DNA from: a virus
Reading direction: 5' to 3' (one strand)
DNA length: 36,549 bases
Virus record (IMG/VR): IMGVR_UViG_3300031853_000132
Coordinates: 1 to 36,549 of that record
Shown: positions 7,388-24,076 of the stretch, piece by piece
Position numbering within the stretch: the first letter of the stretch is position 1
Layout of the letters: every line of letters begins with the position of its first letter
The notes under the pieces: model-generated
The model's input: only the letters and a program-made list of their open reading frames with translations
Told to the model about the DNA's origin: nothing
Database searches by the model: none
Translations under genes and position numbers: made by a program

Positions 7388-7797
7388 TGAAATATGACGA
7401 CCTTTTGAACATACCTTTTAAGAAGTTTGGACGCGACAAAAGCGGCTTTGACTGCTACGGCGTGGTTATGGAGTGCTGCAAGAGAGCGGGAACGCCCTTG
7501 CGGGACTTGTACGGCGATATAGTGGACTTACCCGCCGACGGGGTAAATGACTATATAAGCGGGGGCTTGAATGTGCGAGAAATCCCCGCCCCGAAAGTGG
7601 GCGCTATCGTATATTCAATCTATCACGGCAACGTACACGTGGGCTACATCGTAGACCGCGGCATAGTTCTACACGCCACAATCGACAAAGGCGTGAAAAT
7701 CTCACCGCTTGCGGCGTTGCGCCCTATTGCTTATTACGAGGTTATAAATGAAAGCGACCCTATACAAGACACTATCAAACAGACAAACACCGATTGA
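7387..7797 (+). CDS. NlpC/P60-type cysteine peptidase, tail-tip assembly protein (lambda gpK-like)
   Basis: GFDCYGVV (catalytic Cys context), then HVGYIV and LHAT downstream. Start is coupled by TAATG overlap. Confidence 0.65.
   Translation: MKYDDLLNIPFKKFGRDKSGFDCYGVVMECCKRAGTPLRDLYGDIVDLPADGVNDYISGGLNVREIPAPKVGAIVYSIYHGNVHVGYIVDRGIVLHATIDKGVKISPLAALRPIAYYEVINESDPIQDTIKQTNTD
7546..7559 (+). promoter_or_regulatory. Late-promoter-like motif AATGACTATATAAG (copy inside the NlpC/P60 gene)
   Basis: Exact 10-mer; identical over 15 nt (AAATGACTATATAAG) to the copy at 14449-14463. It lies about 190 nt upstream of the host-specificity gene start. Confidence 0.35.
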
Positions 7798-10700
7798 AGT
7801 AAAGGCAGGGCAGACAGTCGCCCGAGCTTTTCCCGAGTTAGATTTAGAAAACGCAATCATCGTAGTAAACGGACGCATAGAAAAGCCCGATTATGTTTTG
7901 CAGGAAACCGACAAAGTTATGATCCGTTTGACACCAAGCGGAACTACTGCGCTTGTTGTTACTCTTGTCGTGGTTGCGGTTGTGGCCGTAGGCGCTGGCG
8001 TTGTCGGCGGTATTGCTGCATATAAGGCAAAACAGGCAGCCGAAAAAGCAGAAAAAGAACTGGAAAAAGTAAAGAAGCTCACCAATAAACCCGAAGTGGA
8101 TAACCGCCCGTTCTTACGGGGCGCAAGCAACACAGACGCGCAGGGCAATTTATTGCCGTTCATGTGCGGTTACAACTTCTTTACACCTTACAAATTAAGC
8201 AGCCCGTTTTATAAAATCGTCGGCACTGACGGCGTGGACGAATACACCTACACCGCGTTTGTGTGCGGCTTCAATAAGCAGCTGATTAAAAAAGTAGCCA
8301 TTGACGACGTAATAATTAAGACCTTTTCTACAAGCGCCCCGCAAGAGGGAGCCTACACGCTCGACACTTCTATTTTTGCCGAGGACGGACGGCTTGAGAT
8401 TGCGCAGGACGGCGCACTATTAAGCGACTTAACAGAATTAAACTACAAGACCGTTTCAAACGCTTGTAACGACGAAATACCAAAAGATACGCTCGTAAGC
8501 GAGGGAACAAAAGAGTATTTAACATATACGCTGAACAAATACGCGAAAGACGTTGACGTGGCAATAGCGTTCCCTTACGGCCTTTATGCTTATAACGACG
8601 ATAACGACAAAGTAAGCAACACCGTTACAATTACGCCGCAGTATTCACTTGACGGCGGCAGCACTTGGACGAACTTTACATTTAACAATAACGGGACTAT
8701 GACAAACACATTTTCCCGCAACGTTTCAGACAAAGAGCTGCGCTTTGTGGCACACAAGGCTTTTACCTTGTCGGACTATGCGACACTCAAGAACAACGGC
8801 CAAGAAAATATTTATATCCGCGTAAGAAGCAACGGCGCGGCGCATGACACAAAAATACATAATGATTGTTACGTGCTTTTCTATCAGTCGGTTTGTTATG
8901 ATCCGAATAAGTCAAGCAAGCCTGCGGGAATCGTGGACGACAGCGGAGCTGCTGGCCTTGTAAGCTGCAAGAACATTGAGGACAGGGAGCGGGCTTTCTG
9001 TACTATTCTAGCGCTTAAACTCAAAGCTACAAAAGTAAACGAAGATAAACTCAAAAAAATAAACATCATCACAAACGGCGTGGCGCGTACATGGAGCGGC
9101 GCAGCTTGGACGACTGCAAAAACCGCGACCCGAAACCCTGCTGCATGGGCGCTTGAGATTGAAACAAGCGACAGACACCCAGCAAGCCAGCGCCTTGACA
9201 GTGAGATAGACTTAGAGAGCTTTGGCGAGTGGTACGAATACTGCGAGGACAAGGGCTACAAGTTCGACTATGCAGTAACACAGAACACCAAAAAAGACAC
9301 AATCCTGCAATACATCGCAGAAGCTACAGGCGCGTGTATTTACTGGGACATTAACGGACGGCGTGCGGTTGCGCTTGATAAGCCGCAGGAAAACGCGCTC
9401 GCAGTTTACAACCCGCAGAATATTATTAGTATTCAGAATAAAAAAAGTTTTGGACGACGCACCGACGGCTTGAGAATTAAATATAATTCCAGCGATAACG
9501 ACATTTTCCAAGAGCTTACATATCTTGTCATGCGCGAAGTGGACGGCAGACCGCTACCGCTTACAGACGACAGCATAATTAAAGACGTGACAATAACGGG
9601 CGTTACAACACGCAGCCACGTTGTAAAATACGCCCGCCGCCTTATGGCTATAGAAGCGCTGCGCCCGAAAACGACAATTATTGAAGTCGGAAACGAGGGC
9701 ATTTTCTACACGCCATTTTCAAAAATCCTTATTCAAGACGACAGCCTTAAAATAGGACTTGGCAAGGGCTACGTAGTGCAGGATATAGCCTATAGCGGCG
9801 GCATTATCGACAAGATTTATATTGACGGGCAGGTAACTTTTGAGGACGGCAAGGAATACGGAATTATTGTTAACTGCTACGGTGCCGACGCTGGCGAAAC
9901 ACCGCTTGCAATCAAAGTAAGCGGAACGGGAACAACCGACACGCTGAACGTTGATACAATCATAGCACAAAGCGCAAGTATTAAACCCGAAATAAATTGT
10001 ATTTTCTCTTTTGGTGAGTTGGACGACGACGGCGAGTTTACAAAGGTAACGACAGAATATTTAATCAATCAGATCAGACGAAGCGACAAGGGTTTTAACT
10101 TGGAGCTTGTAAACTATAACGAAGCTATCTACGACACGGGCACAATTCCCGACTATCTGCCGAACATCACACAGAAGCAGACAAGCGCCCCCGCGCCTAT
10201 TCCTGCGGACTACGTGACAAAACGCGAGCTTGACGAAGTTATCGACAATATGCAAAGCGGAAATATACCAGTAGGCAAACCCGACGCGCCGACTTTGGTT
10301 GTAGGTTCAGCTTTCCGCGACGGCATAAACTTGAGCTGCGTACACAATACAGACGGCCTGCGTAATGATTTACGCGCTATTGTATTCACTATCACAAAGG
10401 CAGACGGCACAACGGCTACTATAAGCGTAAGCGGACGCACTGGGACATATACGTTTGACCGTGAAGTGGACGGCTACCCCGAAAAAACGGACTTGCAGCA
10501 ATGGACAGTAAGCGCCCGCGCCGTAAACATCTACGGCAAGGAAAGCGTAGAAAGCGAAGCCCGCCCCGTTTCTACTGCTTTATATGGCACTTGGCAGCTT
10601 TCAGCGCCAGTTATCACAAAGCGCGAAAGTAACCGCGTTATTACTCTTTACTTTGAGCAGCCGACACGCTCGGACGGCTTGGAACGCTACGGAAATATAC

Positions 10701-12679
10701 AGCACCGCGTACAGATTAAGAGATTGACCGCGCCAGCTGACAGCGCATATTTTAAGCCAGCGACAGGGGCGAACCCATACGAAAACGAAGCGAACTACAA
10801 AGACGGCAGCGGCTTTGTAATTGCTGGCAGTAGCTACGCGCAGACATTGCCACTTGCGGGGCAGGACTTGACCGACCCAATACCCGAAGATACAACCTAC
10901 GGCTTTTGTATTGTGGCATACAACGAAGCAAGCGAAAGCCCAGCTACAGAAATTAACGCCGTTGCACACGCTACGAGCATACGCGACATTGTAGAAAACG
11001 CAATCGGAAACGCGCAGATTAAGCAGGACGCAGTAACAGCGGACAAAATCTACGTGCGTATGCTTTCAGCAATACAAGAAAACCTCGGCTATATTACGGG
11101 CGGCGTTTTTGAGGGAACCGAGAACAACCGCTGGGCGCTTTCAACTATTACGCTTGAGGACGGCAGCACACGCTACGAGGGCGCAATGCGCGTCGGCGGT
11201 GACGATGAATACTTTGAGGTAGAGCCTTACAACATCGTTAACGGAGTGCCGCAGAATTACCACGTAAAGTTTAAGGCTGGTAACTTTGAGATTGCGGCGC
11301 AGGCGTCAAGTATTAACGGAATCCTTTATATACAGGAAAACGAAAACGCGCTTGACCGTACGAAGATAAGCCCGAACGGTACGTACTACCAGCACCGCGA
11401 AACCGTAAACAGCGAATGGCAGACTATTGCAAGCTCGAATGTAAACGGCGTTATGACAAAGCAGGTATTTTCAGACGATACCCTTTTTATAACAAATCAA
11501 GACATGGTCGAGCGACGCAAGCAGGGCTACGACATCGGAAACGCTTATTTGAGCAGCGCGTCAAAAGTGTATCATTTTGACACTGACATTTTCGACCAAA
11601 ACGGCGTAAACGATTTAACGGTAGAGGACGCAGAAATCGACGGCGGCCACAACCTTGTCGGAAAAGACAACGAAAGCGACGACATAGACTTTACGCCCGC
11701 TATTCTTGCGATTGCGCCTTATGCAACGCTCGGCAAGTCACTTTATGGACGCTACGGCATTACTGCCGCCTATGGTTCTTGTGACAAGTTCACCGTTGAC
11801 TTTTGGCTGCAATACATCTACGCAGAAAATCAGACCATATTTGACATCGGAAACGCTGGCGACAAAATCAAGCTGATTATTGCTGCGAGCGAGTGCTATT
11901 TTGAAAAAGGCGCAGACGACAAAAGCGGAATACCGTTTAACGCTGAAATCACACAAAGCCGACTTTATAACCTTTTGCCGTTGCGTGACGTGCTTTTTAA
12001 CAAGGCAAGCGAAAGTGAAATAGCATTTAATGCAGCTGCAAACGGCGAGTGCCCTTTTGAATCTATCGCAGTAAAAGAGTTCAACGCAAACTATGTTTAT
12101 TACGTGAAAACCACTACCGCAGGCGTTGAGGTTTGGAGCGTGGCAACAGTTACGGCGGCCACATATTACACACTGTTAGCGGCTGGACTTTACGAAAAAA
12201 CGCTGCCGTTCAACTCACCAGCTGCCGCACACAGCTATTTGCAGCATGACGGACAGACACAGAGCGAACAGCGCGAACTTTCCGACATCGGCGTATCGTT
12301 TACGCCTAATTCTTGGCTGCATATTGGAATTATTGCAAGCGCAAACAAAATCACGGTGGCGCTGAACGACCGCGCCGCAGAGTTTACCCGCTACGGAACA
12401 GCAGCAGCGGCTTTGTCGGTTGTGCTCAATAGCAGCCGCAATTCTTTTATGCTCGACGAGCTTTTAGTAGATATTACAGAAGCCGAAGCGGTAGACACGT
12501 TCTACGAGCACACAACAAACCGCGTGCCGTGGGCGAACCTTTCAAAGAGTAATGATTATTTCATTCTTACGGTTAAGGACTTGCAGAACTTCAAGACCAA
12601 TATTTTTGATACGCAGCTGTTCAAGGATAAAGTCGCAGAAGTTATACAAGACTATATAAATAACAATACACAGGAGTAA
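7748..12679 (+). CDS. Tail-tip host-specificity protein, gpI-like N-terminus fused to a gpJ-like body
   Basis: 1643 aa. The N-terminal ~70 aa are followed by a hydrophobic stretch (LVVTLVVVAVVAVGAGVVGG), as in lambda gpI. The large body carries Fn3-like repeats (PDAPTLVVGS..., SAPVITKRES...). GAGG SD. Confidence 0.7.
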   Translation: MKATLYKTLSNRQTPIEVKAGQTVARAFPELDLENAIIVVNGRIEKPDYVLQETDKVMIRLTPSGTTALVVTLVVVAVVAVGAGVVGGIAAYKAKQAAEKAEKELEKVKKLTNKPEVDNRPFLRGASNTDAQGNLLPFMCGYNFFTPYKLSSPFYKIVGTDGVDEYTYTAFVCGFNKQLIKKVAIDDVIIKTFSTSAPQEGAYTLDTSIFAEDGRLEIAQDGALLSDLTELNYKTVSNACNDEIPKDTLVSEGTKEYLTYTLNKYAKDVDVAIAFPYGLYAYNDDNDKVSNTVTITPQYSLDGGSTWTNFTFNNNGTMTNTFSRNVSDKELRFVAHKAFTLSDYATLKNNGQENIYIRVRSNGAAHDTKIHNDCYVLFYQSVCYDPNKSSKPAGIVDDSGAAGLVSCKNIEDRERAFCTILALKLKATKVNEDKLKKINIITNGVARTWSGAAWTTAKTATRNPAAWALEIETSDRHPASQRLDSEIDLESFGEWYEYCEDKGYKFDYAVTQNTKKDTILQYIAEATGACIYWDINGRRAVALDKPQENALAVYNPQNIISIQNKKSFGRRTDGLRIKYNSSDNDIFQELTYLVMREVDGRPLPLTDDSIIKDVTITGVTTRSHVVKYARRLMAIEALRPKTTIIEVGNEGIFYTPFSKILIQDDSLKIGLGKGYVVQDIAYSGGIIDKIYIDGQVTFEDGKEYGIIVNCYGADAGETPLAIKVSGTGTTDTLNVDTIIAQSASIKPEINCIFSFGELDDDGEFTKVTTEYLINQIRRSDKGFNLELVNYNEAIYDTGTIPDYLPNITQKQTSAPAPIPADYVTKRELDEVIDNMQSGNIPVGKPDAPTLVVGSAFRDGINLSCVHNTDGLRNDLRAIVFTITKADGTTATISVSGRTGTYTFDREVDGYPEKTDLQQWTVSARAVNIYGKESVESEARPVSTALYGTWQLSAPVITKRESNRVITLYFEQPTRSDGLERYGNIQHRVQIKRLTAPADSAYFKPATGANPYENEANYKDGSGFVIAGSSYAQTLPLAGQDLTDPIPEDTTYGFCIVAYNEASESPATEINAVAHATSIRDIVENAIGNAQIKQDAVTADKIYVRMLSAIQENLGYITGGVFEGTENNRWALSTITLEDGSTRYEGAMRVGGDDEYFEVEPYNIVNGVPQNYHVKFKAGNFEIAAQASSINGILYIQENENALDRTKISPNGTYYQHRETVNSEWQTIASSNVNGVMTKQVFSDDTLFITNQDMVERRKQGYDIGNAYLSSASKVYHFDTDIFDQNGVNDLTVEDAEIDGGHNLVGKDNESDDIDFTPAILAIAPYATLGKSLYGRYGITAAYGSCDKFTVDFWLQYIYAENQTIFDIGNAGDKIKLIIAASECYFEKGADDKSGIPFNAEITQSRLYNLLPLRDVLFNKASESEIAFNAAANGECPFESIAVKEFNANYVYYVKTTTAGVEVWSVATVTAATYYTLLAAGLYEKTLPFNSPAAAHSYLQHDGQTQSEQRELSDIGVSFTPNSWLHIGIIASANKITVALNDRAAEFTRYGTAAAALSVVLNSSRNSFMLDELLVDITEAEAVDTFYEHTTNRVPWANLSKSNDYFILTVKDLQNFKTNIFDTQLFKDKVAEVIQDYINNNTQE
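12648..12660 (+). promoter_or_regulatory. Degenerate copy of the late motif (AAGACTATATAAA)
   Basis: Shares the GACTATATA core and differs from the consensus at one position (T to A). It lies about 35 nt upstream of the tail-fibre ATG. Confidence 0.25.
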
Positions 12680-12685
12680 AACACT

Positions 12686-14353
12686 ATGGCTACATTAGAC
12701 TTAACACTGGCAGCATTGCGACTTGCGGGGCTTACAAACTTTACGCCCGAGTTCGGCACAAAGGAAGCCGACGGCGTAAGCGTAAGCACTGAAAACGTAT
12801 GCAAAGATATTATGCTGCCGTTTACATTCCAGCGCCCCGTACTCGTAAGCGAAACGAGCGACACTGGAAACATCGAAGCAACCCGCACGCTTGTTTTGAC
12901 AAACAGCGGAATTGTTTTGACACTTGGCCGCGCAACTTTTGCAGGCTGTAAAATCACAGTGCAGACGGGGTTCTCAAGCGGCAGCGCACAGGTTCGCTAC
13001 TTGACCGCCGCCAACACTTACGAAACCGTTACGCTTGCAGCTGGCAACAGCGTTGAGATTGTAAGCAACAGCGACCTTTATTTTTACAAACGGCTGCGTA
13101 TCAATAATTCAATCATCATCAACACAAACGAAAACTTGATACTTAACCGTCGTTATCTTTACCCGTCGGTTTTCCCAGTGGCAAACAGAAACAAAGATAC
13201 CGACTTTGTGGTACAGAATAACCAGCTTTACAGCAAGAACAGCGTATTTATTAGAGCGGGCGCAACCCTGCCGCCGTTCTACGTTGAAAACGTGGGGCTT
13301 TTGCAGTTCCACACAGAAAGCGACATAGAGCTTGACGTAGACGACTGCGACGACACTTGCACAGGGCTTGAAGCAGGAAAAGACTATTTTATTTATTTGA
13401 TTTACAGCCCGGCTTTATTCCCGAACGAAAAAGACAACCTCGGCTTTAAAATCAGTTTGAACGACCCCGACGGAATCAGCTTGTACGGTAATTCAGACAT
13501 TGCAGGCAGCGGCGCGAAACCGATTAAGGCATACGCAGAAGTTGACGGCGCGATTTTGAATGAACAAAACTGTATGTGTATAGGCGGCTTTCATACCGTG
13601 CTTGTAGACTGCGACGCACTCGCAGCAGGCCAGCAGGTGCACCCGCTCACAGATTATACAGCGGGAGCTATTCACCCGTTCACCGTTTGGGACTTGTACC
13701 ACCGCCCGAACGGTACAAGCGTAGGTATGCTTTACAATCCTTGTATAGACAAGTGGGGTTCTTTGTATCTGCTTTCAGAGCGTGCCTTTGACAAGACGGG
13801 CACAGCTGCAAGTTACGGCGGCACATACCCGAAAAACAATATAATTCTTATTTCAGCAGCAAACAAAGAGTTTGTAACTGGAACAACTACAGGCCGCGTT
13901 TTCCCTTGTTTGCGCGGCGAACAGATATTGAGCTTTCAGAAACAGCGCTTGCCGACTTTGCAGGAGTTCACAGCGTTTACACTTGGAAGCCCGCAGGGTT
14001 TGGCAATCAAAGGAGCTGCAAACCCCGTTACTACAGGCGGACACCTTGCAAGCGACAATACGCAGATTATTTCATACTGCGGTATGTTCGACGGCGTGGG
14101 CGTTCTTTGGCAGTGGGGACAGGAAAACGGCTACACTGTTTCTAGCGACTGGCAGACTAACTACAACACAACGCACGACAAAGACGTTAAAGGCGACGCT
14201 TTCAACCCGCAAACACGCGTCTTTTTTGGTGGCCGCTGGGACGATGGTTCGCACTGCGGTTCGCGGGCGTGCATTTGGAGCCATGGGGCATTGGAACTGT
14301 ATGACCATATCGGTTTTCGGGCGGTTGCCGAGCCACGCCATATTAAGGGGTAA
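12686..14353 (+). CDS. Tail fibre / receptor-binding protein with a C-terminal FGE/C-type-lectin-fold domain; DGR target
   Basis: 555 aa. The C-terminus FFGGRWDDGSHCGSRACIWSHGALELYDHIGFRAVAEP carries the GxW..GS.CGSR...GFR(A/V)V signature of the formylglycine-generating-enzyme-type lectin fold used by known DGR targets. It contains the VR. Confidence 0.85.
   Translation: MATLDLTLAALRLAGLTNFTPEFGTKEADGVSVSTENVCKDIMLPFTFQRPVLVSETSDTGNIEATRTLVLTNSGIVLTLGRATFAGCKITVQTGFSSGSAQVRYLTAANTYETVTLAAGNSVEIVSNSDLYFYKRLRINNSIIINTNENLILNRRYLYPSVFPVANRNKDTDFVVQNNQLYSKNSVFIRAGATLPPFYVENVGLLQFHTESDIELDVDDCDDTCTGLEAGKDYFIYLIYSPALFPNEKDNLGFKISLNDPDGISLYGNSDIAGSGAKPIKAYAEVDGAILNEQNCMCIGGFHTVLVDCDALAAGQQVHPLTDYTAGAIHPFTVWDLYHRPNGTSVGMLYNPCIDKWGSLYLLSERAFDKTGTAASYGGTYPKNNIILISAANKEFVTGTTTGRVFPCLRGEQILSFQKQRLPTLQEFTAFTLGSPQGLAIKGAANPVTTGGHLASDNTQIISYCGMFDGVGVLWQWGQENGYTVSSDWQTNYNTTHDKDVKGDAFNPQTRVFFGGRWDDGSHCGSRACIWSHGALELYDHIGFRAVAEPRHIKG
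14226..14331 (+). repeat. DGR variable repeat (VR)
   Basis: Aligns without gaps to 14559-14664 (offset 333). There are 10 mismatches, and all are at positions where the TR base is A. Weaker homology extends back to 14216. Confidence 0.9.
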
Positions 14354-14419
14354 GCACAACCAAGCGGACACCCTACTACGGGAAAAGGGGACAAGGGGGA
14401 ACAGCCCTACAACCCTACA

Positions 14420-14446
14420 GCGGATAGGCACTTTTAGCCTATCCGC
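14420..14446 (+). terminator. Perfect 10-bp hairpin (GCGGATAGGC / GCCTATCCGC, 7-nt loop) downstream of the VR
   Basis: Seen directly. There is no T-tract after it, so it may be a DGR-associated hairpin or an atypical terminator. Confidence 0.4.
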
Positions 14447-14449
14447 ATA

Positions 14450-14463
14450 AATGACTATATAAG
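14450..14463 (+). promoter_or_regulatory. Late-promoter-like motif AATGACTATATAAG upstream of the DGR template repeat
   Basis: Exact 10-mer, about 95 nt upstream of the TR and on the same strand as the TR and RT. Confidence 0.45.
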
Positions 14464-14558
14464 TATAAGCGGCAATCTTGGGTAGCGCGTGACAAAAAAA
14501 CAACCACGACCCGAAAAACGCCCGCCGAGATACTCACATCTTAGCGGGCGCGTCATTC

Positions 14559-14664
14559 TTGGTGGCAACTGGGACAATAGTTCGCACTGCGGTTCGCGGG
14601 CGTACAATTGGAACAATGGGGCATTGGAACTGAATGACAATATCGGTTTTCGGGCGGTTGCCGA
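14559..14664 (+). repeat. DGR template repeat (TR)
   Basis: Non-coding copy of the VR. Read in the VR frame, the variable positions are AAY/AGT/TAC codons (N, N, S, Y, N, N, N, N, N). Homology ends abruptly after 14664. Confidence 0.9.
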
Positions 14665-14840
14665 TACTGAATAAGATTGTAAGAACCCACTTACGCAATA
14701 TCTTTTTAGGCTGGCGCGTTATCCAGTGAGGGGAAACCCTGCAAAATTACTGAATGGGAAGCAATACTCGACTAGTAGGAAATCCGAAAGCCGTTTATTG
14801 ATATACTGGCAGATTGCCGCTATTTTTGGAGTACAACAAA

Positions 14841-16349
14841 GTGAAGCGATACGGTAACTTGTGGCAGCAAGTTTGTACATACGAAAACATAGACAAAGCT
14901 ATACGGCTGACTTTCAGAGGAAAGCGCCGTTATAATGAGTTTAAGGAAATCGAAAAGAACTTGCCGTATTATCGCGAACAGCTGCACGAAATGCTTGTAA
15001 ACGAAAGCTACACCTACGGCGAATATACAATAAAGCACATCTACGAGCCAAAGCCAAGAACGGCACTTGTAGCGCGGACTTTTCCCGACAGATTTTTACA
15101 CCACGCAATAGTAAACGTCGGCGAGCCGATATGGAGCAGCCGCACTTATTACCATTCTTACGCCTGCATTAAGGGCAAGGGCACGCACGCAGCACACAGA
15201 CAGATTGCTAAACTTGTGGCGGGTTATAATTACATTTGCCACTTGGATATACACAGCTTTTACGCCAGCATAGACCACGACGTATTAAAACAGGCATTGC
15301 GCAGGAAAATTAAAGACGTAAAATTTTTACGGTATTGCGACGGCCTTATAGACAATTACCCTACGCCCTGCGGTATTCCTATCGGAAACGCTACAAGCCC
15401 GTGGTTTGGAAATGTTGCACTTTGGGGCGTTGACGACTTCATAAAACACGAATTGAAATTGCCATACGTGCGCTATAACGACGATATGGTAATAGCCAGC
15501 AACGACAAAAGCGAACTGGTAAAAGCCCGTGAACGTGTGCGGGGTTATTTGTGGGAAACAATGGGGCTGACGTTTTCAAAGTCATACATCAAGAACACGC
15601 GGCAAGGTATAAACGCCGTCGGCTATCATTCATATAAAAACAGAAAAAGCGATACAGTAACAATTTTGAAACGCAAAACAGCGCGTAAAATCCGTTTATT
15701 TGTCGCCGAAAAAGCGACCACAGAAGCACTCAAGAGCGTTAAGAGCGCAAACAAGGTGCTGCGAGTGCTTACCAGCTACAACGGGATTTTGACAAATTGC
15801 AGCTGTAATCGGTTCATAGAAAAAATAGACTTTAATAACAAGCTGGAGCTTTTCAAAATCAAGGGGCACGAAATGATTAAACAAATCACAGAATATTATA
15901 ACAACGGAATACTGACGGGCGAAACGCTGACAATAGAAACAGTCGCGGGGCTGCATATTTACATAAGCGGTATTCAGCAGACGAAAAACAAATACTACCA
16001 CGAATATATTTGCGAGGAAAACGGCGAAAAGCTCAAGCAGACAAACGGCAAGAATCCGACGTTATCAGTAATTCAGTTTTATATCGCGGCCAAAGAACAT
16101 GGCAAAGAAGAAAAACAGATACGCGAAAGCGGAAAGTTATATAAAGTATTCAGCTCGGCTTATTCTATTACGAACGCAGCCGAAGCTATGAAAGATATTG
16201 ATTTTAAAAACGACCTTGTTTCTGCAATGTTCACAAAAAGCGGCAAACACCCCGAGCTTGTGCCATACGAAAGCGACTACGCGCAGAAAAAAGGCATAGA
16301 CACTGCGGGCGTATTGCAGAAGCTCGAAACAATCGCAGCCGCTAGTTAA
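14841..16349 (+). CDS. DGR reverse transcriptase with a ~170-aa C-terminal extension
   Basis: GTG start nine nt after GGAG, giving an N-terminus of KRYGNLWQQV. Carries an RT motif B-like PIGNATSPWFGN and the catalytic box RYNDD. The track ORF starts earlier, at a TTG at 14814. Confidence 0.85.
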   Translation: MKRYGNLWQQVCTYENIDKAIRLTFRGKRRYNEFKEIEKNLPYYREQLHEMLVNESYTYGEYTIKHIYEPKPRTALVARTFPDRFLHHAIVNVGEPIWSSRTYYHSYACIKGKGTHAAHRQIAKLVAGYNYICHLDIHSFYASIDHDVLKQALRRKIKDVKFLRYCDGLIDNYPTPCGIPIGNATSPWFGNVALWGVDDFIKHELKLPYVRYNDDMVIASNDKSELVKARERVRGYLWETMGLTFSKSYIKNTRQGINAVGYHSYKNRKSDTVTILKRKTARKIRLFVAEKATTEALKSVKSANKVLRVLTSYNGILTNCSCNRFIEKIDFNNKLELFKIKGHEMIKQITEYYNNGILTGETLTIETVAGLHIYISGIQQTKNKYYHEYICEENGEKLKQTNGKNPTLSVIQFYIAAKEHGKEEKQIRESGKLYKVFSSAYSITNAAEAMKDIDFKNDLVSAMFTKSGKHPELVPYESDYAQKKGIDTAGVLQKLETIAAAS

Positions 16350-17032
16350 TAGCCAAGTTCCATAAAGCGCACGCCACGCACGCGCCCCGTAATAATATTG
16401 TCGTTGATATAGTCGCGTATTTCAGCTCGCAGCGCAGCTTCATTCTTTGGCGAGAAGTCGGCGGTTGTTTTCTGCGCTATAAGGTTTTTAAGATAAACAG
16501 CTATTATGTCATTTTGCGCCGTTATTTCCGTAGCTGTTTGTTTATCATCAAGTTTGAAACCCAGCACAACGGAAAGCGAAACCTTGCCGCCGTCGCTTGT
16601 TTTGTTTTCGGCTGCTATTCCCTTAGACCATGATAAAACCTCACGATTTTGTGAATAATCACTGCTCGGAATTACTGCAAGGTTCAGCGGTATATCGTCA
16701 ATGTTTACGGAGTACGCCGCGCCGTTTGCTTTTGCTACCAGCTTCAAAGGCTTTACTTTGTATATATTGAACCGCTCGCCGTTCTTTTTTGTAAAATCTG
16801 TAAAATCAATAGAATTGCCGCCCGCTGGTAAATCGTCGGTGTAAAAATACTCACCGTTCAGCGTGTATGTGATTGCGGGAATATCTGCGCCCGTGTCATT
16901 GTTTACCCAGTAGAGCACAGGCGCGGCTTTTGGATCGCGTGAGTTATACTCAAGCGAAATATTAAGCTGCTTGGAACATGAGCAAAGCAGAGCCGCAAGA
17001 ATTAAAGATACAAAAATAGATTTTACTTTCAT
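16346..17032 (-). CDS. Lipoprotein with a FliL-like C-terminal domain (accessory gene)
   Basis: The ATG at 17032 follows GAGGTG. Signal peptide MKVKSIFVSLILAALLCSCS has a lipobox-like Cys. The C-terminal pattern (LSVVLGF...IIAVYLKNLI...LRAEIRDYIN...VRGVRFMELGY) resembles the FliL family (from memory). Confidence 0.55.
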   Translation of the reverse strand: MKVKSIFVSLILAALLCSCSKQLNISLEYNSRDPKAAPVLYWVNNDTGADIPAITYTLNGEYFYTDDLPAGGNSIDFTDFTKKNGERFNIYKVKPLKLVAKANGAAYSVNIDDIPLNLAVIPSSDYSQNREVLSWSKGIAAENKTSDGGKVSLSVVLGFKLDDKQTATEITAQNDIIAVYLKNLIAQKTTADFSPKNEAALRAEIRDYINDNIITGRVRGVRFMELGY

Positions 17033-17087
17033 GTTTACACCTCGCAAAAGATTATAACACGACTTTTCAAAAAGTGTGTAAAAAAAA

Positions 17088-18338
17088 TTAACCTGCGCGG
17101 ACAGTCGCCCGCCCGCTATGTTTATCAGCGTAAAAATATCTGTAAATTAAATCTTTTTCAACTGCTGGCATAGAATCGCCCACAATATCGCAAAGCGGTT
17201 CGGCAAGCTCGATGGGGTAATACTTGCCGCCGATATAAGCCCGCAGCCCGTAACGCTCGGACAAACACAGGGTAAACGAAACGCAAGCGGCGCGAGCTGT
17301 AAGCAGATTAAACTTGTAACCGTGATAAATAAAGCTGCCGTTTGCTCGGGTTTTCTTTTCGCAGCGAACAGAAAAAAGAAAGTCAAAATCTTTGACGGCT
17401 GGCGGGTTTTGCCAGTGCAGCTCGGAATCCTGCGCAGAAACGGAAAAACGGGCGTTAAATCCCTCGACGAAATCGGCAAGAAAAGCGTTTGCTTTTTCGA
17501 TAGTGTCGATTTTTAAGAAGCGGAAAATATAAGGCAATCGGCCTTGCAGCGTTTGCCATAGTCGCTCGATACGCCCTTTTGCCTGCGGGCTATAAGCTGC
17601 AATCAATTCTATGTTTAATTCTTGGCAGGTTTTCTGCCATTGCGTTTGTGCTTTTTCCGCGCCTGCTAATTGCTCCTCAAGAGTTGCGCCACGGTTCACA
17701 AAAAAGCAGCTGGATCTATCCGAGTAAATCGCCCGCGGCAGCTTTCCGCCCGTTCGCTCGAACACTTGAAAAAGCAGCTGGTAATAGCCCAGCAAACATT
17801 CATTTTCGCAGAAATACAAAGCTACTACTTTGTGCGTTGCGTCGTCGATTGCACCGTGCAAACAAACTTTGTGGCCGTTCATAAACCAGTTATGGCTTGA
17901 ACCGTCAATCTGTATTAAGTCGCCCTCGTTTGGTCGTTCGGAGCGCGGCAGGTGCAGTTTTTTTTCGCGTACAGGAATACGAGCACGCGGCGAAACAATA
18001 CCAGCACCCGAAAGCGCATTGTAAACAGTGGCATAAGAGGGCACTTTTTTATAGTGCAGATAGTCGGCGCAATCGTCGCGAAAAGAAGCAAACGGGGTGC
18101 CGCTGAACTGCTCATAATCTGCGACAATCTTTGCAGAATCGTATTGTTTATTCTTTGGAGTGCGCCCAGTGTTGCCGTGAATAAAGATTGAATCGCCGTA
18201 TTTTCTGTAACGATTTTTTAATCGCGTGACAGAATACGGCGCTATCCCGATAGCTTTTGCAGCTTTACGGACTGAGATTTTACCAGCGCAGCACATCGGT
18301 ATATACTGCATTTTCTTTGTGTGTAACTCGTAATTCAC
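17088..18338 (-). CDS. DDE (rve/integrase-core) transposase with N-terminal HTH, IS481/ISNCY-like
   Basis: 416 aa. HTH region ISVRKAAKAIGIAPYSVTRLKNRY. Candidate catalytic residues in IQIDGSSH, IYSDRSS and KGRIERLW. Confidence 0.75.
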   Translation of the reverse strand: MNYELHTKKMQYIPMCCAGKISVRKAAKAIGIAPYSVTRLKNRYRKYGDSIFIHGNTGRTPKNKQYDSAKIVADYEQFSGTPFASFRDDCADYLHYKKVPSYATVYNALSGAGIVSPRARIPVREKKLHLPRSERPNEGDLIQIDGSSHNWFMNGHKVCLHGAIDDATHKVVALYFCENECLLGYYQLLFQVFERTGGKLPRAIYSDRSSCFFVNRGATLEEQLAGAEKAQTQWQKTCQELNIELIAAYSPQAKGRIERLWQTLQGRLPYIFRFLKIDTIEKANAFLADFVEGFNARFSVSAQDSELHWQNPPAVKDFDFLFSVRCEKKTRANGSFIYHGYKFNLLTARAACVSFTLCLSERYGLRAYIGGKYYPIELAEPLCDIVGDSMPAVEKDLIYRYFYADKHSGRATVRAG

Positions 18339-18384
18339 GCCGTAACAATCGGCGACAAGTGAAACAAACTTTAATTAACTTGGT

Positions 18385-18410
18385 ACAAAATGGAACAATT
18401 GGAACACTTG
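18385..18410. repeat. Left arm of a 26-bp inverted repeat (ACAAAATGGAACAATTGGAACACTTG)
   Basis: The reverse complement matches 18538-18563 at 25 of 26 positions. Contains two GGAACA boxes. Confidence 0.85.
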
Positions 18411-18537
18411 CTCCATTTGTCCCACGTGTTCCATTGTAAAAAACAGCGTATTTTTAACGCATTTTTGCACGCGCGTTAAACGCTGCGCCCCGTAAAAACC
18501 GCCCCTTGTAAATCCTTATAGTATATAGACTTTGGAA

Positions 18538-18563
18538 CAAGTGTTCCAAATGTTCCATTTTGT
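18538..18563. repeat. Right arm of a 26-bp inverted repeat (CAAGTGTTCCAAATGTTCCATTTTGT)
   Basis: See the left arm. An extra TGTTCCATTG box lies at 18427-18436. Confidence 0.85.
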
Positions 18564-18569
18564 CGCTAT

Positions 18570-18617
18570 GTATATGTATTTGTATATGTATATGTATTTG
18601 TATATATATAATATATA
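18570..18617. repeat. AT-rich tandem repeat: 18-bp unit GTATATGTATTTGTATAT x2, then an (AT)n tract
   Basis: Units at 18570-18587 and 18588-18605 are identical and are followed by atataatatata. Confidence 0.85.
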
Positions 18618-18718
18618 GGCGCATTGCTGCGCCCGCCCTGCGTTGAGGAACTGCGGCCAGCTTCTTTTTTTTCGGGGCGGCATTATCGGCAAGAAATAAA
18701 AAATATTTAATTTAGCGC

Positions 18719-18748
18719 TTGACAGATTTTAAAAAACGGCGCTATAAT
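18719..18748 (+). promoter_or_regulatory. Consensus sigma70-type promoter (TTGACA, 18 nt, TATAAT) with an AT-rich UP-like tract
   Basis: TTGACA at 18719-18724 and TATAAT at 18743-18748. The upstream tract aagaaataaaaaatatttaattta is A/T rich. Confidence 0.7.
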
Positions 18749-18754
18749 CAAAAT

Positions 18755-18977
18755 ATCAGCGGAAACAAGCCGCTGCATATCTTGGGTGTACACCTTTTCA
18801 AATCAATGTTGACAGTATCAACATTAAGCAAAAAAGTGCACACCAAGCAAACGAACGGCTACTTTTTGGTCTGTTGAGTAGCCGCTTGTTTCGGTACGAG
18901 CGACTATTTTACGGTAACTCGTAAATCAAAACCCGCAACGGATAACAGACCAATCCGAAGCGGGTTTTATTTTTTTT
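18755..18977 (+). ncRNA. Structured non-coding leader / candidate regulatory RNA (~220 nt)
   Basis: No ORF is present. It has several hairpins (CAGCGG/CCGCTG, AATGTTGA/TCAACATT nested within GGTGTACAC/GTGCACACC, CGGCTACT/AGTAGCCG, TACGAG/CTCGTA). A 9-nt long-range complement (GAAACAAGC / GCTTGTTTC) is also present. It ends in a terminator. Confidence 0.4.
18928..18977 (+). terminator. Intrinsic terminator 15 nt upstream of the first early gene
   Basis: AAAACCCGC pairs with GCGGGTTTT. An inner CGGA/TCCG stem is present, followed by tta and a run of eight T. Confidence 0.65.
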
Positions 18978-18992
18978 GCAAGAGGTCTGAAA

Positions 18993-19205
18993 ATGGCAAA
19001 AAGGAACACCAGCAACAACCCGCTTTTTCGGCAAATCCGAGAACTGGAAGAAAAGGCACTGAAAGCGGGAATCATCGGAAAAGACGACATCAAGACATCG
19101 GAAGCCATGCGCGAAGAAGCGTGGGAATGTTACTTAGTAGGTCGCGCAGAAAGGCTTGAAAAATCAATCAGAGAACACGAACTAGACACGGGGGCTGAAT
19201 CATGA
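18993..19205 (+). CDS. Hypothetical early protein (70 aa)
   Basis: ATG after AGAGG; first gene of the rightward early operon. Confidence 0.5.
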   Translation: MAKRNTSNNPLFRQIRELEEKALKAGIIGKDDIKTSEAMREEAWECYLVGRAERLEKSIREHELDTGAES

Positions 19206-19534
19206 GCGGCTACCCTATCGAACTAATCACCAAGAACAGGGCTGGAAAAATCAGCCACCAGCAATTCACAAAACAATTCAGCGGCTGGCAGAAATCGCGC
19301 GGCATTAACTACGACTGCAAGGGAACGGCGGACAGGCTGGGCGTTCATGTTGAGTACAGGGGGATAACGGCAACAATTCGCGACGGAAAATTAAGTTTTA
19401 TCACGGGCGACAATTGTGAGCCGAACAGCCCAACACGTTTTTTATGGCATGAAGCAAATTCTGTTTTTGAATTCCGCCGCAAGGTTGATTTTTCCCTCAA
19501 TGCGAGAAACGACGGGGGCGCGAAATGGAACTAG
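19202..19534 (+). CDS. Hypothetical early protein (110 aa)
   Basis: Coupled to the upstream ORF by ATGA overlap. Confidence 0.5.
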   Translation: MSGYPIELITKNRAGKISHQQFTKQFSGWQKSRGINYDCKGTADRLGVHVEYRGITATIRDGKLSFITGDNCEPNSPTRFLWHEANSVFEFRRKVDFSLNARNDGGAKWN

Positions 19535-19869
19535 AAGACATACCCGAGAGCGCCGTAGTTCAGCAGGTAAAAACAGTTATTAAAGCTACGGGTTTGAAAT
19601 TGCAGCGAATAAATACGGGCTGCTTTCAAATTGGCGAGGGACAGCACAGGCGTTTTGTAAAAACGGCAGAAGCTGGCACCTGCGATTTTGAGGGCTACGA
19701 CAACCACGGGCGATTTTTGGCGGTTGAGTGTAAGCGGCCAGTGGGCGGGAAATTGTCACCCGCACAGGAAGCGCGAATAAACGACATAAACCACAAGGGC
19801 GGCGTTGCCTTTGTAGTTCATAGCGGGGAAGAGTTCCTGCAAAAGCTTAAAGAAAGACATTGCATTTAA
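19525..19869 (+). CDS. VRR-NUC domain nuclease
   Basis: GTCDFEGY...FLAVECKRPVGGKLSPAQEARIN...GGVAFVV matches the D...E.K core and layout of VRR-NUC/resolvase-like nucleases. Confidence 0.65.
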   Translation: MELEDIPESAVVQQVKTVIKATGLKLQRINTGCFQIGEGQHRRFVKTAEAGTCDFEGYDNHGRFLAVECKRPVGGKLSPAQEARINDINHKGGVAFVVHSGEEFLQKLKERHCI

Positions 19870-19881
19870 GGGGGTGCGACA

Positions 19882-20430
19882 ATGTTTGAAAACGAAGAAG
19901 AAGAAATCGAGAAAGTGCCAACACCAGCGGCATTTTTAACACTGGTAAAACAACTTAACACCATTGCATACGAAAAAGAAGCCGTTTTGCAGTGCGAGGA
20001 AAGCGGCGCAAAGGTTGCGAACTTGCAGGGCTTTTTAGCTGGCGTGCGTAATTACAAAAAGGTTATGCACGACAACGGCTACGAGTTTGACAGCAAATAC
20101 GAGGGCACAACAGAGCGCGGCGTATCGTTCTTTGACGACGACGGTTGCGTTTTAGAGCTTGCCGAATTGAGAGTAATTAAAAGCGATATTGACGAGTTCA
20201 CGGAAACACAGACTTTTGCGCACTTTAAAGAAAAATGGCAGCAGGCAGTAGAAACAAAAAAAGACTGGTTATTTTACACCAGCGAAAAAGGACGCGACCT
20301 GCATTTTTGTAAGGGCTGGTATGAAGCCATGAAAACAATAGACGACATAATCGAAAGACTTGGGCGCGAGCTTGAAGCTGCGGAAAAAGACGCAGCAAAC
20401 AGCCTGCCTTTTGACGAAATCGGGCAATAA
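19882..20430 (+). CDS. Hypothetical early protein (182 aa)
   Basis: GGGGGTG SD. No recognisable motif. Confidence 0.5.
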   Translation: MFENEEEEIEKVPTPAAFLTLVKQLNTIAYEKEAVLQCEESGAKVANLQGFLAGVRNYKKVMHDNGYEFDSKYEGTTERGVSFFDDDGCVLELAELRVIKSDIDEFTETQTFAHFKEKWQQAVETKKDWLFYTSEKGRDLHFCKGWYEAMKTIDDIIERLGRELEAAEKDAANSLPFDEIGQ

Positions 20431-20432
20431 GG

Positions 20433-20483
20433 GGAACACGCGCAGAGGGCGCTTAAAGGCGGGTTCAAATCCCGCGTGTTTCA
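20433..20483 (+). other. tRNA-like minihelix (7-bp acceptor-like stem + canonical T-arm GCGGG-TTCAAAT-CCCGC + short GCGC hairpin)
   Basis: GGAACAC (20433-20439) pairs with GTGTTTC (20476-20482). The T-arm spans 20459-20475. At 51 nt it has no D arm or anticodon arm. Confidence 0.4.
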
Positions 20484-20538
20484 AGAGGTAAACAGCTGGC
20501 CAGCGTTCGACCTTAATAATTTTTACGAGGTGCGAAAA

Positions 20539-20712
20539 ATGAAAAATGCTATTTTGAAAATCTGCGAAAAGTTGCGCGGATATTCAGACACAGAGCCGTA
20601 TTTTGAAGTTACGGAGATCAAGCAGAACGACAACGGGACTTTTACAGTTACTTGTAAAGTCGTAGACCCAGCAGCAGAAGAACAGGGGGCAAAGAATGAA
20701 AGTAACGAATAA
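20539..20712 (+). CDS. Hypothetical small protein (57 aa)
   Basis: The internal ATG at 20539 follows GAGGTG. The upstream part of track ORF 20476.. overlaps the tRNA-like element. Confidence 0.45.
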   Translation: MKNAILKICEKLRGYSDTEPYFEVTEIKQNDNGTFTVTCKVVDPAAEEQGAKNESNE

Positions 20713-21556
20713 TTTACACCTGCCCGAAGCGTTTGTAAAAGCTGTAAGTGTTGAGCGCCACAATAAAGCTGGCAGCTATTCTGCAACAACCCTTAACAAG
20801 GGCACAAAAGAAGTAATACTGCAAGAGCGCCACTGGGACGAGTTCAGCGTAGACGCTGCCGACCAAGTATGGGCGACTTTTGGGACTGCGGTTCATGCAA
20901 TCATGGAAAAATACGAGGACGGCAATTTTCACGAAGAAACTTTCGACATTGCCGTATCAAATAGCCGTGTAACTGGAACAGTCGACAGCTACGACATGGA
21001 ACACGGAGTTATAAACGACTGGAAAACAGCAAGCGTTTACAAAGTAATGCACGGCGATTTTTCCGACTGGTACAAGCAGGGTATGACCTACGCATGGCTT
21101 TTGAAGCAGAACGGGCTTGACGTTCGCCATTGTAGATTTATTGCGCTTCTTAAAGACCACAGCAAGAGCAAGGCCAAGACAGACGCAAGCTACCCGCAAA
21201 GCCCAGTATTTACATACGAGTTTGACGTAACGCCCGAGGAATTGCAGCAGACGGGCGAAAGAATCTTAAACAAAGTAAAGGACATCGAAGCCGCCGAGCT
21301 TATGAGCGACGACGAAATAGCACCATGCACAGCCGAGGAACGCTGGGCAGACAGTGACAAGTACGCCGTAATGAAAAACGGCAGAAAAACAGCGGTGCGC
21401 GTTTTCGACCAGCTTGTAGACGCGGAAGCCTGCGCGGGTGCTTTGGGTAATTCCCACTACGTCGAGCACCGCCCCGCAGTGTCGAGAAAGTGCGGCGATT
21501 ATTGCTTGTGTAAAGATTTTTGCAGCTTTTACAAAAAAGAACAGGAGAACAAATAA
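20696..21556 (+). CDS. PD-(D/E)XK (Cas4/RecB-like) exonuclease with a C-terminal Cys cluster
   Basis: 286 aa. Contains GTVDSYD and INDWKT (D...D/E.K-like). One Cys lies upstream (IAPCTAEE) and three at the C-terminus (CGDYCLCKDFC). This matches the single-plus-triple Cys layout of Cas4-type Fe-S nucleases. Confidence 0.6.
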   Translation: MKVTNNLHLPEAFVKAVSVERHNKAGSYSATTLNKGTKEVILQERHWDEFSVDAADQVWATFGTAVHAIMEKYEDGNFHEETFDIAVSNSRVTGTVDSYDMEHGVINDWKTASVYKVMHGDFSDWYKQGMTYAWLLKQNGLDVRHCRFIALLKDHSKSKAKTDASYPQSPVFTYEFDVTPEELQQTGERILNKVKDIEAAELMSDDEIAPCTAEERWADSDKYAVMKNGRKTAVRVFDQLVDAEACAGALGNSHYVEHRPAVSRKCGDYCLCKDFCSFYKKEQENK

Positions 21557-23236: not shown

Positions 23237-24076
23237 ATGATTGGATATAAAGCCTTTGATAAAGATTTAAAGTGTCGTGGTATGCAATTCGAGGTTGGAA
23301 AAACATACAAAACCTACGCAAAAGAAAACTTAAAACTATGCAGTGACACTGTAATACATTTTTGTAGAGAGTTAAACAAAATTGAAAGAGTTAGTAGCTA
23401 CACAATTGCTAATAGTCGAATTTGTGAAGTAATCGCCAGCGGCGAAATTGTAGACGACGGCGAAAAATACGGAACGAATGAAATAACAATTTTGCGTGAG
23501 TTGTCTGAAGAAGAAAAAGTTAAATATAACAATTGGAACTCGGGCGATTGGAACTCGGGCAATTGGAACTCGGGCGATTGGAACTCGGGCAATTGGAACT
23601 CGGGCAATCGTAACTCGGGCGATTGGAACTCGGGCAATCGTAACTCGGGCAATTGTAACTCGGGCAATTGTAACTCGGGCAATCGTAACTCGGGCGATTG
23701 GAACTCGGGCAATTGGAACTCGGGCGATTGGAACTCGGGCTTTTTTAACACAAACGAGCCGCCAGTAAGAATCTTTAATAAAAATACAAAAACAAAAAAA
23801 GAAAATATTAACTTTCCGTCGTTTCTTTCTTTTGATTTAACTTTGTGGGTGTCACACGACACAGCAACAGAGGAAGAAAAGAAAATTCATAAAAAAGAAA
23901 TCGAAACCGCAGGCGGATTTTTAAAAACTCTTACGTACAAAGAGGCATTTAGACGCGCTTGGAATAGAGCAACAAAAGAGGAACATAAAAAACTTTTAGC
24001 GCTGCCTAATTGGAATAATAAGATTTTTAAAGAAATTAGCGGCATAGACGCAGAAAAGGAAATTGAGAACGAATGA
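23237..24076 (+). CDS. Repeat protein with 14 tandem (W/R/C)NSG(D/N) pentapeptide units
   Basis: 279 aa. The central region is encoded by 15-bp tandem repeats. Confidence 0.6.
   Translation: MIGYKAFDKDLKCRGMQFEVGKTYKTYAKENLKLCSDTVIHFCRELNKIERVSSYTIANSRICEVIASGEIVDDGEKYGTNEITILRELSEEEKVKYNNWNSGDWNSGNWNSGDWNSGNWNSGNRNSGDWNSGNRNSGNCNSGNCNSGNRNSGDWNSGNWNSGDWNSGFFNTNEPPVRIFNKNTKTKKENINFPSFLSFDLTLWVSHDTATEEEKKIHKKEIETAGGFLKTLTYKEAFRRAWNRATKEEHKKLLALPNWNNKIFKEISGIDAEKEIENE
23531..23740 (+). repeat. 15-bp tandem repeat x14 ((a/g)at(tgg/cgt/tgt)aactcgggc)
   Basis: Counted unit by unit. All units are in frame and vary only at the first base and at the tgg/cgt/tgt codon (bases 4-6). Confidence 0.95.

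Follow-up and report, generated by a model that had tools for sequence, protein, structure and literature searches.

Does the DNA immediately downstream of the central tail fibre gene in IMG/VR virus record IMGVR_UViG_3300031853_000132 encode a working system for rewriting a receptor-binding protein, and how is that system equipped, given that it has no avd gene? The window, by which we mean the whole stretch of 36,549 nucleotides (nt) that was analysed, carries between positions 12,686 and 16,349 a tail-protein gene, two near-identical repeats and a reverse transcriptase (RT) gene, and an initial annotation made from the sequence alone had read this arrangement as a diversity-generating retroelement (DGR). 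Related contigs are given here by L-numbers and protein clusters by P-numbers. We are highly confident that the element is real and well formed, and that it is a DGR of the kind that diversifies the Mtd protein. Taken as a whole, the locus is very probably best explained as a Bordetella-phage (Mtd)-type DGR in a temperate siphovirus-like phage, whose host is probably Treponema. The element is an ordinary kind of DGR; what is new is its accessory arrangement, with no Avd and with a domain fused to the RT.

The repeats carry much of the evidence. In ungapped comparison, the variable repeat (VR, 14226-14331) and the template repeat (TR, 14559-14664) differed at 10 positions, all 10 of them adenines in the TR and all replaced by the bases that the initial annotation had listed. 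The inner 106 nt of the TR contain 24 adenines, and the probability that 10 random mismatches would all fall on A is approximately 6e-8. These 106 bp are, however, the inner part of a longer repeat of 116 nt, which begins 10 nt further to the 5' side (Table 1). Over this full extent there are 12 mismatches, of which 11 are at TR adenines (the extra 10 nt contribute an A>T at TR 14555) and one is a C>T, so that the earlier statement that no C, G or T position differs holds within the inner 106 nt and fails at TR 14558. Just ahead of the terminal A is a GC-rich stretch of 21 nt that contains no adenine and is identical in VR and TR, and past TR 14664 homology ends abruptly, the VR continuing as GCCACGCC and the TR as TACTGAAT; both features had been recognised in the initial annotation. 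The same junction, CGA followed by GCC in the VR and by TAC in the TR, recurs in L103 and L108.

The coding design of the TR had also been read correctly. Its codons for N, N, S, Y, N, N, N, N, N stand where the VR encodes R, D, G, C, I, S, H, Y, H; seven codons are AAY, 22 of the 24 adenines occupy codon positions 1-2, and in no codon can adenine mutation yield a stop, while about 1.4e13 peptides are possible. The 61-aa open reading frame (ORF) at 14489-14674 is nothing other than the TR read in the frame of the VR.

Relatives of the locus, which were recovered with a TR pattern in which every A was replaced by N and by protein-based searches, revealed a clean natural series of fixed TR and many VRs. 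The TR was identical in 5 independent contigs whose VRs differed or were absent, and 9 distinct VRs were present among the related loci. When each VR was compared with its own TR, mismatches fell on adenines in 11 of 12 cases in the window, 11 of 11 in L096, 12 of 12 in L014, 14 of 15 in L100, 10 of 11 in L009 and 5 of 7 in L099. Pooling these six pairs, 63 of 145 A sites were changed, compared to 5 of 551 non-A sites (Fisher 1e-42), with a spectrum of 42 A>G, 13 A>T and 8 A>C. Where TRs were polymorphic at sites other than adenines, the cognate VR carried the matching base (in L099/L100, T15C and G25A; in L009, 12 sites), a signature of TR-to-VR copying. At the protein level, the 8 most variable columns of the 555-residue target among 43 homologue clusters all lay in VR codons with TR adenines. 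Among 18 proteins at 88–97% identity, every VR peptide was distinct (18/18), and divergence reached 73% at the 15 A-codons compared to 4.4% elsewhere. Variation restricted to TR-adenine sites was thus seen between assemblies of related phages, which comes close to the read-based population test proposed with the initial annotation. The target-VR-TR-RT architecture recurred in relatives down to 31–37% target identity. Beyond these relatives, megablast of positions 12000-17000 against GenBank phages gave no match, an exact TR-pattern scan of GTDB representative genomes gave 0 matches, and a protein-based GTDB scan gave only distant DGR RTs (≤40% identity) lacking the C-terminal extension described below.

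The product of the target gene, which directly follows the gene for the J-like central tail fibre (1643 aa; 7748-12679), had been assigned to an Mtd/TvpA-type lectin fold, and sequence comparisons point to Mtd. In phmmer searches of the PDB, residues 299-549, with the VR included, aligned to Mtd residues 139-376 (1yu1, E 3e-10), and matches to Mtd chains ranged from E 3e-10 to 9e-8 over approximately 250 residues. The protein also matched the tail protein family phrog_11262 (E 5e-34), and weakly the Pfam Mtd second domain (17.7 bits, under the 24.6 cut-off). In tblastn searches of GenBank phages it found 7 records only, 5 of which were Bordetella phage mtd, and 4 of these were annotated VR1 (BPP-1/BIP-1/BMP-1). 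Judged by its sequence, the target would be a distant Mtd homologue with a different N-terminus. Like that of BPP-1, the window TR encodes GGNW..GSRA.NWNNG..N.NIG, and because BPP-1 has AAC at the positions of all 7 AAY codons of the window TR, the face of the lectin fold that is randomised would be the same as in Mtd. Residues 1-165 of the target (12686-13180) showed 46–56% identity to tail proteins with unrelated C-termini (L105/L106), and P0149-P0151 shared about 28% of the target length at 86–88% identity. The pattern suggests that the N-terminal part is an anchor module exchanged between receptor-binding proteins.

Downstream of the TR is the RT gene, with the PIGNATSPWFGN and RYNDD motifs noted in the initial annotation. 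The start of this gene is most likely the GTG at 14841 and not the TTG at 14814 where the ORF opens, because the alignment to bRT, the RT of the Bordetella phage, begins at bRT residue 3 and gene calls agree. The ORF is intact, the core is fully conserved and YNDD is present. In the PDB, the best match was bRT (8ub7, E 6e-34, 120 bits), and the next were chains named retron-type RT (E 4e-15, 58 bits, and 3e-14), which places bRT ahead of the next solved relative by about 60 bits. Comparison with group II intron RT/maturase gave E ~5e-14 (55 bits), and with retron RTs only ~1e-4. The protein matched Pfam RVT_1 and phrog_1423, and found 140 GenBank phage records, all below 60% identity and none spanning 80% of the query; the 30 of these 140 that were listed are annotated RTs, mostly from crAss-like phages and other DGR carriers (BPP-1, ANMV-1, BalMu-1, Lagaffe). 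These matches argue for membership of the DGR RT group. The initial annotation overlooked three features of the locus, namely the lack of an avd gene, an extra domain of 160 aa at the end of the RT, and an SP in place of the SQ of the RT motif.

The extra domain was present in only 10 protein clusters, P0001-P0010, and an exhaustive HMMER search of 1.84 billion representatives with a profile of the extension returned only its own clade and fragments. No match was found in Pfam, PHROG, or PDB sequence and fold searches, and against BFVD the model of the extension reached a template modelling (TM) score of only about 0.4 (best E 1.1e-4), with two of the matches being other RT-containing viral proteins.

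The RNA around the TR showed a further sign of constraint. The 176-nt spacer between TR and RT was the most conserved piece of the locus, with 99.4% identity compared to 85–95% in the flanking genes, and it is under strong purifying selection. On the small sample of four diverged sequences that was folded with RNAalifold, the whole fold had 57 pairs with 98.7% of cells paired and 15 pairs showing compensatory changes (slid controls, 2-5; 0 of 500 shuffles reached it). Its long-range duplex, which closes the TR into a loop, accounted for 24 pairs, 7 of them with compensatory changes and 98–100% of cells paired. The hairpin at the 5' edge of the TR kept a 7-bp core in relatives, and L009 had a different 9-bp stem at the equivalent place; this hairpin would act as a stop for reverse transcription. 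Within the spacer, the invariant ATTAC-TGAAT-GGGAAG (14746-14761) resembles ATTAC-TGAAAAT-GGAAAG of BPP-1 Sp109-126, which forms the apex of the bRT-binding stem-loop (bioRxiv 10.1101/2023.10.23.563531). In the cryo-EM structure of the BPP-1 system, an upstream/downstream 'cPRT Stop' duplex encloses the TR, and an accessory-binding stem-loop just past the TR is followed by the long bRT-binding stem-loop (bioRxiv 10.1101/2023.10.23.563531); the TR-enclosing duplex found here is like that one. We also considered pairing of the TR 3' end (GCCG) with a spacer CTGG, as in the BPP-1 primer duplex, and dropped it, as the whole-RNA fold gives a better-supported partner upstream of the TR.

Table 1. 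Positions of the parts of the element in the window.
Feature	Position	Strand	Description
DGR target gene	12686..14353	+	555-aa Mtd-like receptor-binding tail protein
VR	14216..14331	+	116 nt; encodes target residues 511-548; 14226-14331 of the initial annotation is the inner 106 nt
Perfect 10-bp hairpin	14420..14446	+	GCGGATAGGC / GCCTATCCGC; 7-nt loop ACTTTTA; 88 nt past VR; only hairpin found
5' duplex arm	14468..14492	+	Pairs with 14712-14725 and 14811-14821; closes TR into a loop
Hairpin at TR 5' edge	14519..14550	+	Inverted repeat, 13-nt arms; 3' arm ends where TR/VR homology begins
TR	14549..14664	+	116 nt, 25 A; non-coding
Spacer (Sp) RNA	14665..14840	+	Between TR and RT
Spacer stem-loop	14679-14694	+	Loop AACCCA
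Spacer duplex arms	14712-14725 and 14811-14821	+	Partners of 14468-14492
Spacer hairpin	14726-14742	+	RNAalifold fold
Conserved spacer motif	14745-14761	+	AATTACTGAATGGGAAG; matches BPP-1 Sp109-126
Spacer interrupted stem	14762-14800	+	RNAalifold fold
DGR reverse transcriptase	14841..16349	+	502 aa, GTG start; motifs IGNATSP and RYNDD
RT C-terminal domain, ~160 aa	15861..16346	+	RT residues 341-502; mixed beta/alpha, OB-like strand order (AlphaFold2, AF2)

From these parts we can postulate how the element would work. The TR would be carried on a transcript spanning roughly 14468 to 14840, with the sequences upstream and downstream of the TR paired to each other. The RT would bind the spacer, begin copying at the A-free 3' end of the TR and proceed to the 5'-edge hairpin, misincorporating opposite adenines, and the resulting cDNA would then take the place of the VR in the 3'-terminal part of the tail-protein gene. 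Up to 15 residues of the lectin-fold binding face, including the 7 AAY codons, would be randomised in this way without a stop ever being created. Of these steps, we infer the priming site and the stop at the hairpin, and likewise the Avd role proposed below for the C-terminal domain of the RT. The phage, which is probably one of Treponema, could reprogram its receptor-binding protein over about 1e13 variants, which is expected DGR biology. The claim in the initial annotation that the phage can rewrite its receptor-binding site is borne out for the lineage, in the form of hypervariation at TR-adenine codons; for the window copy, the lineage makes present activity likely.

Several observations count against reading the locus as a functioning DGR of this type. 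Neither PF22296 (bAvd) nor PF05635 matched any ORF of the window in the Pfam search, in which BPP-1 Avd as a positive control matched PF22296 at 7e-36, and no Avd turned up when the six frames of the window were searched by phmmer with the BPP-1 protein (best E ~1). The DGR hallmark (I/L/V)GxxxSQ reads IGNATSP in the window RT and its close clade (window ~15390-15410, RT residues ~182-188). The SQ is kept in P0010, in the short homologues aligned and in bRT, where Gln187, the equivalent of the replaced Gln, contacts the incoming deoxynucleoside triphosphate (bioRxiv 10.1101/2023.10.23.563531). The end of the repeat had been called similar to an initiation of mutagenic homing (IMH) site, a call whose only ground is the A-free 3' end; no GC-rich hairpin with a GRNA tetraloop was found 4-34 bp past the VR, where a canonical DGR has a GC-rich hairpin or cruciform with a 7-10 bp stem and a GRNA loop (PMC3240598). 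The hairpin that is present (Table 1) has no T-run and is therefore not a typical terminator; it is a candidate target-recognition hairpin or cruciform, and in the alignment L009 and L012 have a hairpin of different sequence at the equivalent post-VR place. The only non-adenine difference, the C>T between TR 14558 and VR 14225, lies just 5' of the start first assigned to the repeat. At this site, L096, L098, L099, L014 and L009 have the TR-like ATTC and L006 and L100 have AGTC, and because all compared VRs of relatives keep the C, the change appears to be private to the window VR. In addition, the cassettes of relatives decay readily, and in L008, from a second sample, the VR is identical to that of the window, so that no turnover of this exact copy is in evidence.

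If the repeats were an ordinary duplication or gene-conversion tract with normal mutation, standing beside an RT from an unrelated retron or group II intron element, one non-A mismatch would be no surprise, and in NCBIfam the best partial matches of the RT are indeed to models of group II intron RTs and retron RTs, none of them near its cut-off. Such an origin is nevertheless exceedingly improbable in view of the extreme adenine bias, both in this copy and in the pooled pairs, the lead of bRT over other solved relatives, the recurrence of the gene order in distant relatives, and the result of an Rfam search, in which no group II intron or retron RNA was found in the window. A second alternative accepts a DGR by descent and holds that the window copy is inactive, its VR frozen and the diversity of its relatives a record of past activity. 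The VR shared by the window and L008 samples would fit this, as would the change from SQ to SP, the lack of Avd, and the decay in relatives (loss of the TR and RT 5' part in L097, RT deletion in L001, an eroded TR in L005). We consider it unlikely, since the RT retains its full 502-aa frame, its YNDD and a core conserved throughout, the window TR is pristine and identical to the TR of four other contigs, and the spacer RNA is strongly constrained. The lineage with the SP motif nonetheless shows adenine-specific mutagenesis, with VR turnover in L014, L096, L100 and L009 among others. We therefore keep to the reading of the locus as a DGR whose window copy is probably active now.

How such a DGR could do without Avd is a separate question. 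The bRT of BPP-1 requires Avd, and avd is present in 74% of DGRs. In the window, the 217 nt between VR and TR are non-coding. L103, with a target identity of 31% and 13 of 15 mismatches between its own TR and VR on adenines, has a short RT of 341 aa and a 109-aa ORF in the avd slot. The family of this ORF comprises 39 clusters (phrog_19665; unnamed) with a mean pI of 7.3. When the profile of the RT extension was compared with that of the 109-aa family in hhalign, the two aligned over 99 columns (probability 94%, E 1.4e-7), and a single-sequence version of the comparison gave E 7e-5; the relationship was not detected by HMMER alone. AF2 models of the two (mean predicted local distance difference test scores of 79.5 for the extension and 86.2 for the 109-aa protein) have the same order of elements, which in the 109-aa protein is beta1-beta2-beta3-helix-beta4-beta5, an OB-like order, and the fused form adds a beta-hairpin insertion. 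The 109-aa model had no significant match in the PDB, and the weak ones include several OB-fold proteins. Genes of 109-110 aa lie between the variable target and the TR/RT in four phage backgrounds (L103, L108-L111, L115, L117), all with short RTs, and in L108, the one slot-type cassette scanned, no neighbouring ORF matched the Avd model. Conversely, the avd slot is empty in the loci with long RTs (the window clade, L107, L102). The first stem-loop past the TR has related loops in the two kinds of element, AACCCA with long RTs and AACTCCG in the slot type.

Homology, position and correlation are the grounds on which we propose that the C-terminal domain of the RT may be a functional, fused, non-Avd accessory factor doing the job of Avd, a proposal to which we give an even chance. 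The joint reading of both arrangements, in which the extension would be the fused form of an uncharacterised non-Avd DGR accessory that elsewhere is a separate OB-like small beta-barrel gene in the avd slot, seems to us equally balanced between right and wrong. It is conceivable that in those cassettes the 109-aa protein holds the spacer RNA in place of Avd, possibly through the stem-loop with the AACYCC loop that adjoins the TR. The domain could also be a phage-specific add-on unrelated to diversification, in an element that needs no accessory or borrows a host factor, which we regard as plausible but somewhat doubtful. DGRs with no accessory genes (29%) and unexplained C-terminal extensions of DGR RTs (~20%) have already been reported (Wu et al. 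2018, PMC5758913), the extension matches no recognisable nucleic-acid-binding family, and its homology to the 109-aa protein emerges only in profile-profile comparison. An unrelated add-on would leave to coincidence the presence of a homologous gene in the avd slot of at least four phage backgrounds with short RTs, the pairing of long RTs with empty slots and short RTs with filled ones, and the related loops of the first post-TR stem-loop. The fused or slot-encoded accessory that we propose would matter beyond this phage. DGRs lacking Avd make up about a quarter of those known, and the domain, whether as part of the RT or as a gene of its own in the avd position, is a concrete candidate for their missing partner. 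To our knowledge, BPP-1 is the only mechanistic model of a DGR, and it needs Avd to position the RNA. For engineered targeted mutagenesis, an RT and accessory in a single polypeptide would offer a simpler chassis.

The closest known system is the BPP-1 DGR (mtd - avd - TR - brt), which has the same gene order and strand, a homologous target with its VR at the 3' end, a homologous RT, and a similar theoretical diversity of about 1e13. The spacers are 176 nt here and 144 nt in BPP-1, with the common motif ATTAC-TGAA..T-GGRAAG like the bRT-binding loop, and both systems have the TR-enclosing duplex (for BPP-1, bioRxiv 10.1101/2023.10.23.563531). Unlike BPP-1, the window has no avd, its VR-TR gap being non-coding; its RT has 502 aa, compared to 328 aa, owing to the additional C-terminal domain, and carries SP where bRT has SQ. 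The hairpin after the VR lies at +88 and has a 7-nt loop, whereas that of BPP-1 has an 8-bp stem and a GRNA tetraloop directly past the VR. The target has approximately 170 extra N-terminal residues compared to Mtd, and BPP-1 is a podovirus of Bordetella, in contrast to the siphovirus-like genome and probable spirochaete host found here. Another DGR from the probable host genus is the TvpA DGR of Treponema denticola, which Wu et al. cite as the HRDC-containing DGR of Treponema. It sits in the chromosome, has a lipoprotein as its target and comes with an HRDC accessory gene. It shares with the window element a variable protein with a lectin fold, and differs in that the window element is phage-borne, has a tail-protein target, and shows no HRDC match in the window ORFs.

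Like the window element, the Avd-less 'Architecture A' DGRs have a TR-RT core without an avd, HRDC, MSL or CH1 gene (Wu et al. 2018, PMC5758913). Extended DGR RTs with a post-thumb extension of about 150 aa and no identifiable motif, as here, appear in the same survey (PMC5758913), which leaves the extensions unexplained, whereas in our analysis profile homology ties the extension to a free-standing gene in the avd slot. The CH1 proteins of that survey (PMC5758913) are larger and more acidic (160-169 aa, pI 4.7) than the 109-aa family, the two being compared by description only. The Hankyphage of Bacteroides (PMC12135933) is likewise a temperate gut-type phage that combines a DDE-type transposase/integrase with a tail-protein DGR; the transposase here is of the ISNCY/rve type and lies at the prophage end, and the sequence relationship between the two was considered at the RT-family level only.

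The decay of related cassettes, in this lineage and its sister lineage, has recurred and taken several forms. L097 (3625-3629) lacks the equivalent of window positions 14451-15492, so that the TR, the spacer and the 5' part of the RT are gone, and its deletion starts 4 nt past the post-VR hairpin. L001 (~1009-1017) has an internal RT deletion. In L116, the RT was lost and the 110-aa accessory gene was kept. Other relatives have eroded TRs. The TR of L005 (6693-6808; also in L098/L112-L114) differs from the window TR at 15 positions, 13 of them adenines, a DGR-like spectrum, and the L005 VR fits a TR of the window type (10/10 at A) and not its own; an assembly chimera was ruled out as the source, as three assemblies gave the same sequence. 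In the TR of L006 (10387-10502), 7 of 8 changes are at adenines. The distant relatives L009 and L012, by contrast, have mostly non-adenine TR changes and have kept their adenines. The simplest reading is that mutagenised cDNA, or a VR, now and then replaces the sequence of a TR, and the eroded TRs of L005 and L006 suggest occasional TR self-targeting. In experiments by Doulatov and colleagues in 2004, a TR that was given an IMH reportedly became a recipient. Our literature search found no relevant report of natural TR erosion, TR self-targeting, or extended DGR RTs. If overwriting of the TR by adenine-mutagenised copies is real, it would be a built-in route of self-inactivation for DGRs. Sister phages, with their eroded TRs and cassette deletions, provide direct instances of DGR death.

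The window is an almost complete siphovirus-like genome of about 36.5 kb, with genes for a terminase, a portal-type protein, minor capsid proteins, a tape measure, an amidase and a replication module. Scans of the window for tRNAs and for Rfam families above their gathering thresholds found nothing. L014 holds the same phage as a prophage, within a contig of 407 kb (GCA_045634105.1). A DegT host gene flanking this prophage (region 16331-21508) falls into one cluster, at ≥90% identity, with a protein annotated as Treponema sp., which makes Treponema the probable host. An ISNCY/rve-type transposase is encoded on the minus strand at 17088-18338 (NCBIfam 311 bits, above cut-off), in the same place in the checked relatives that extend that far, and in the L014 prophage it sits where the phage meets host genes. 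This is probably the enzyme by which the phage integrates; a recent insertion sequence was rejected as its origin, as its place is conserved across relatives. Between the RT and the transposase is a lipoprotein-like ORF (16346-17047, minus strand), conserved in relatives, that has a signal peptide with Cys and a C-terminal half that is weakly FliL-like (E 1.6e-11, far under cut-off). This ORF may be a moron or a superinfection-exclusion gene. In the replication/early region, an ORF on the plus strand (23237-24076) encodes DUF7666 and, after it, a series of pentapeptide-type repeats, NSG(D/N)W. The plus-strand gene at 26878-28308, just upstream of the terminase genes, specifies a product of 476 aa that contains a DNA methylase (N6_N4_Mtase) domain.

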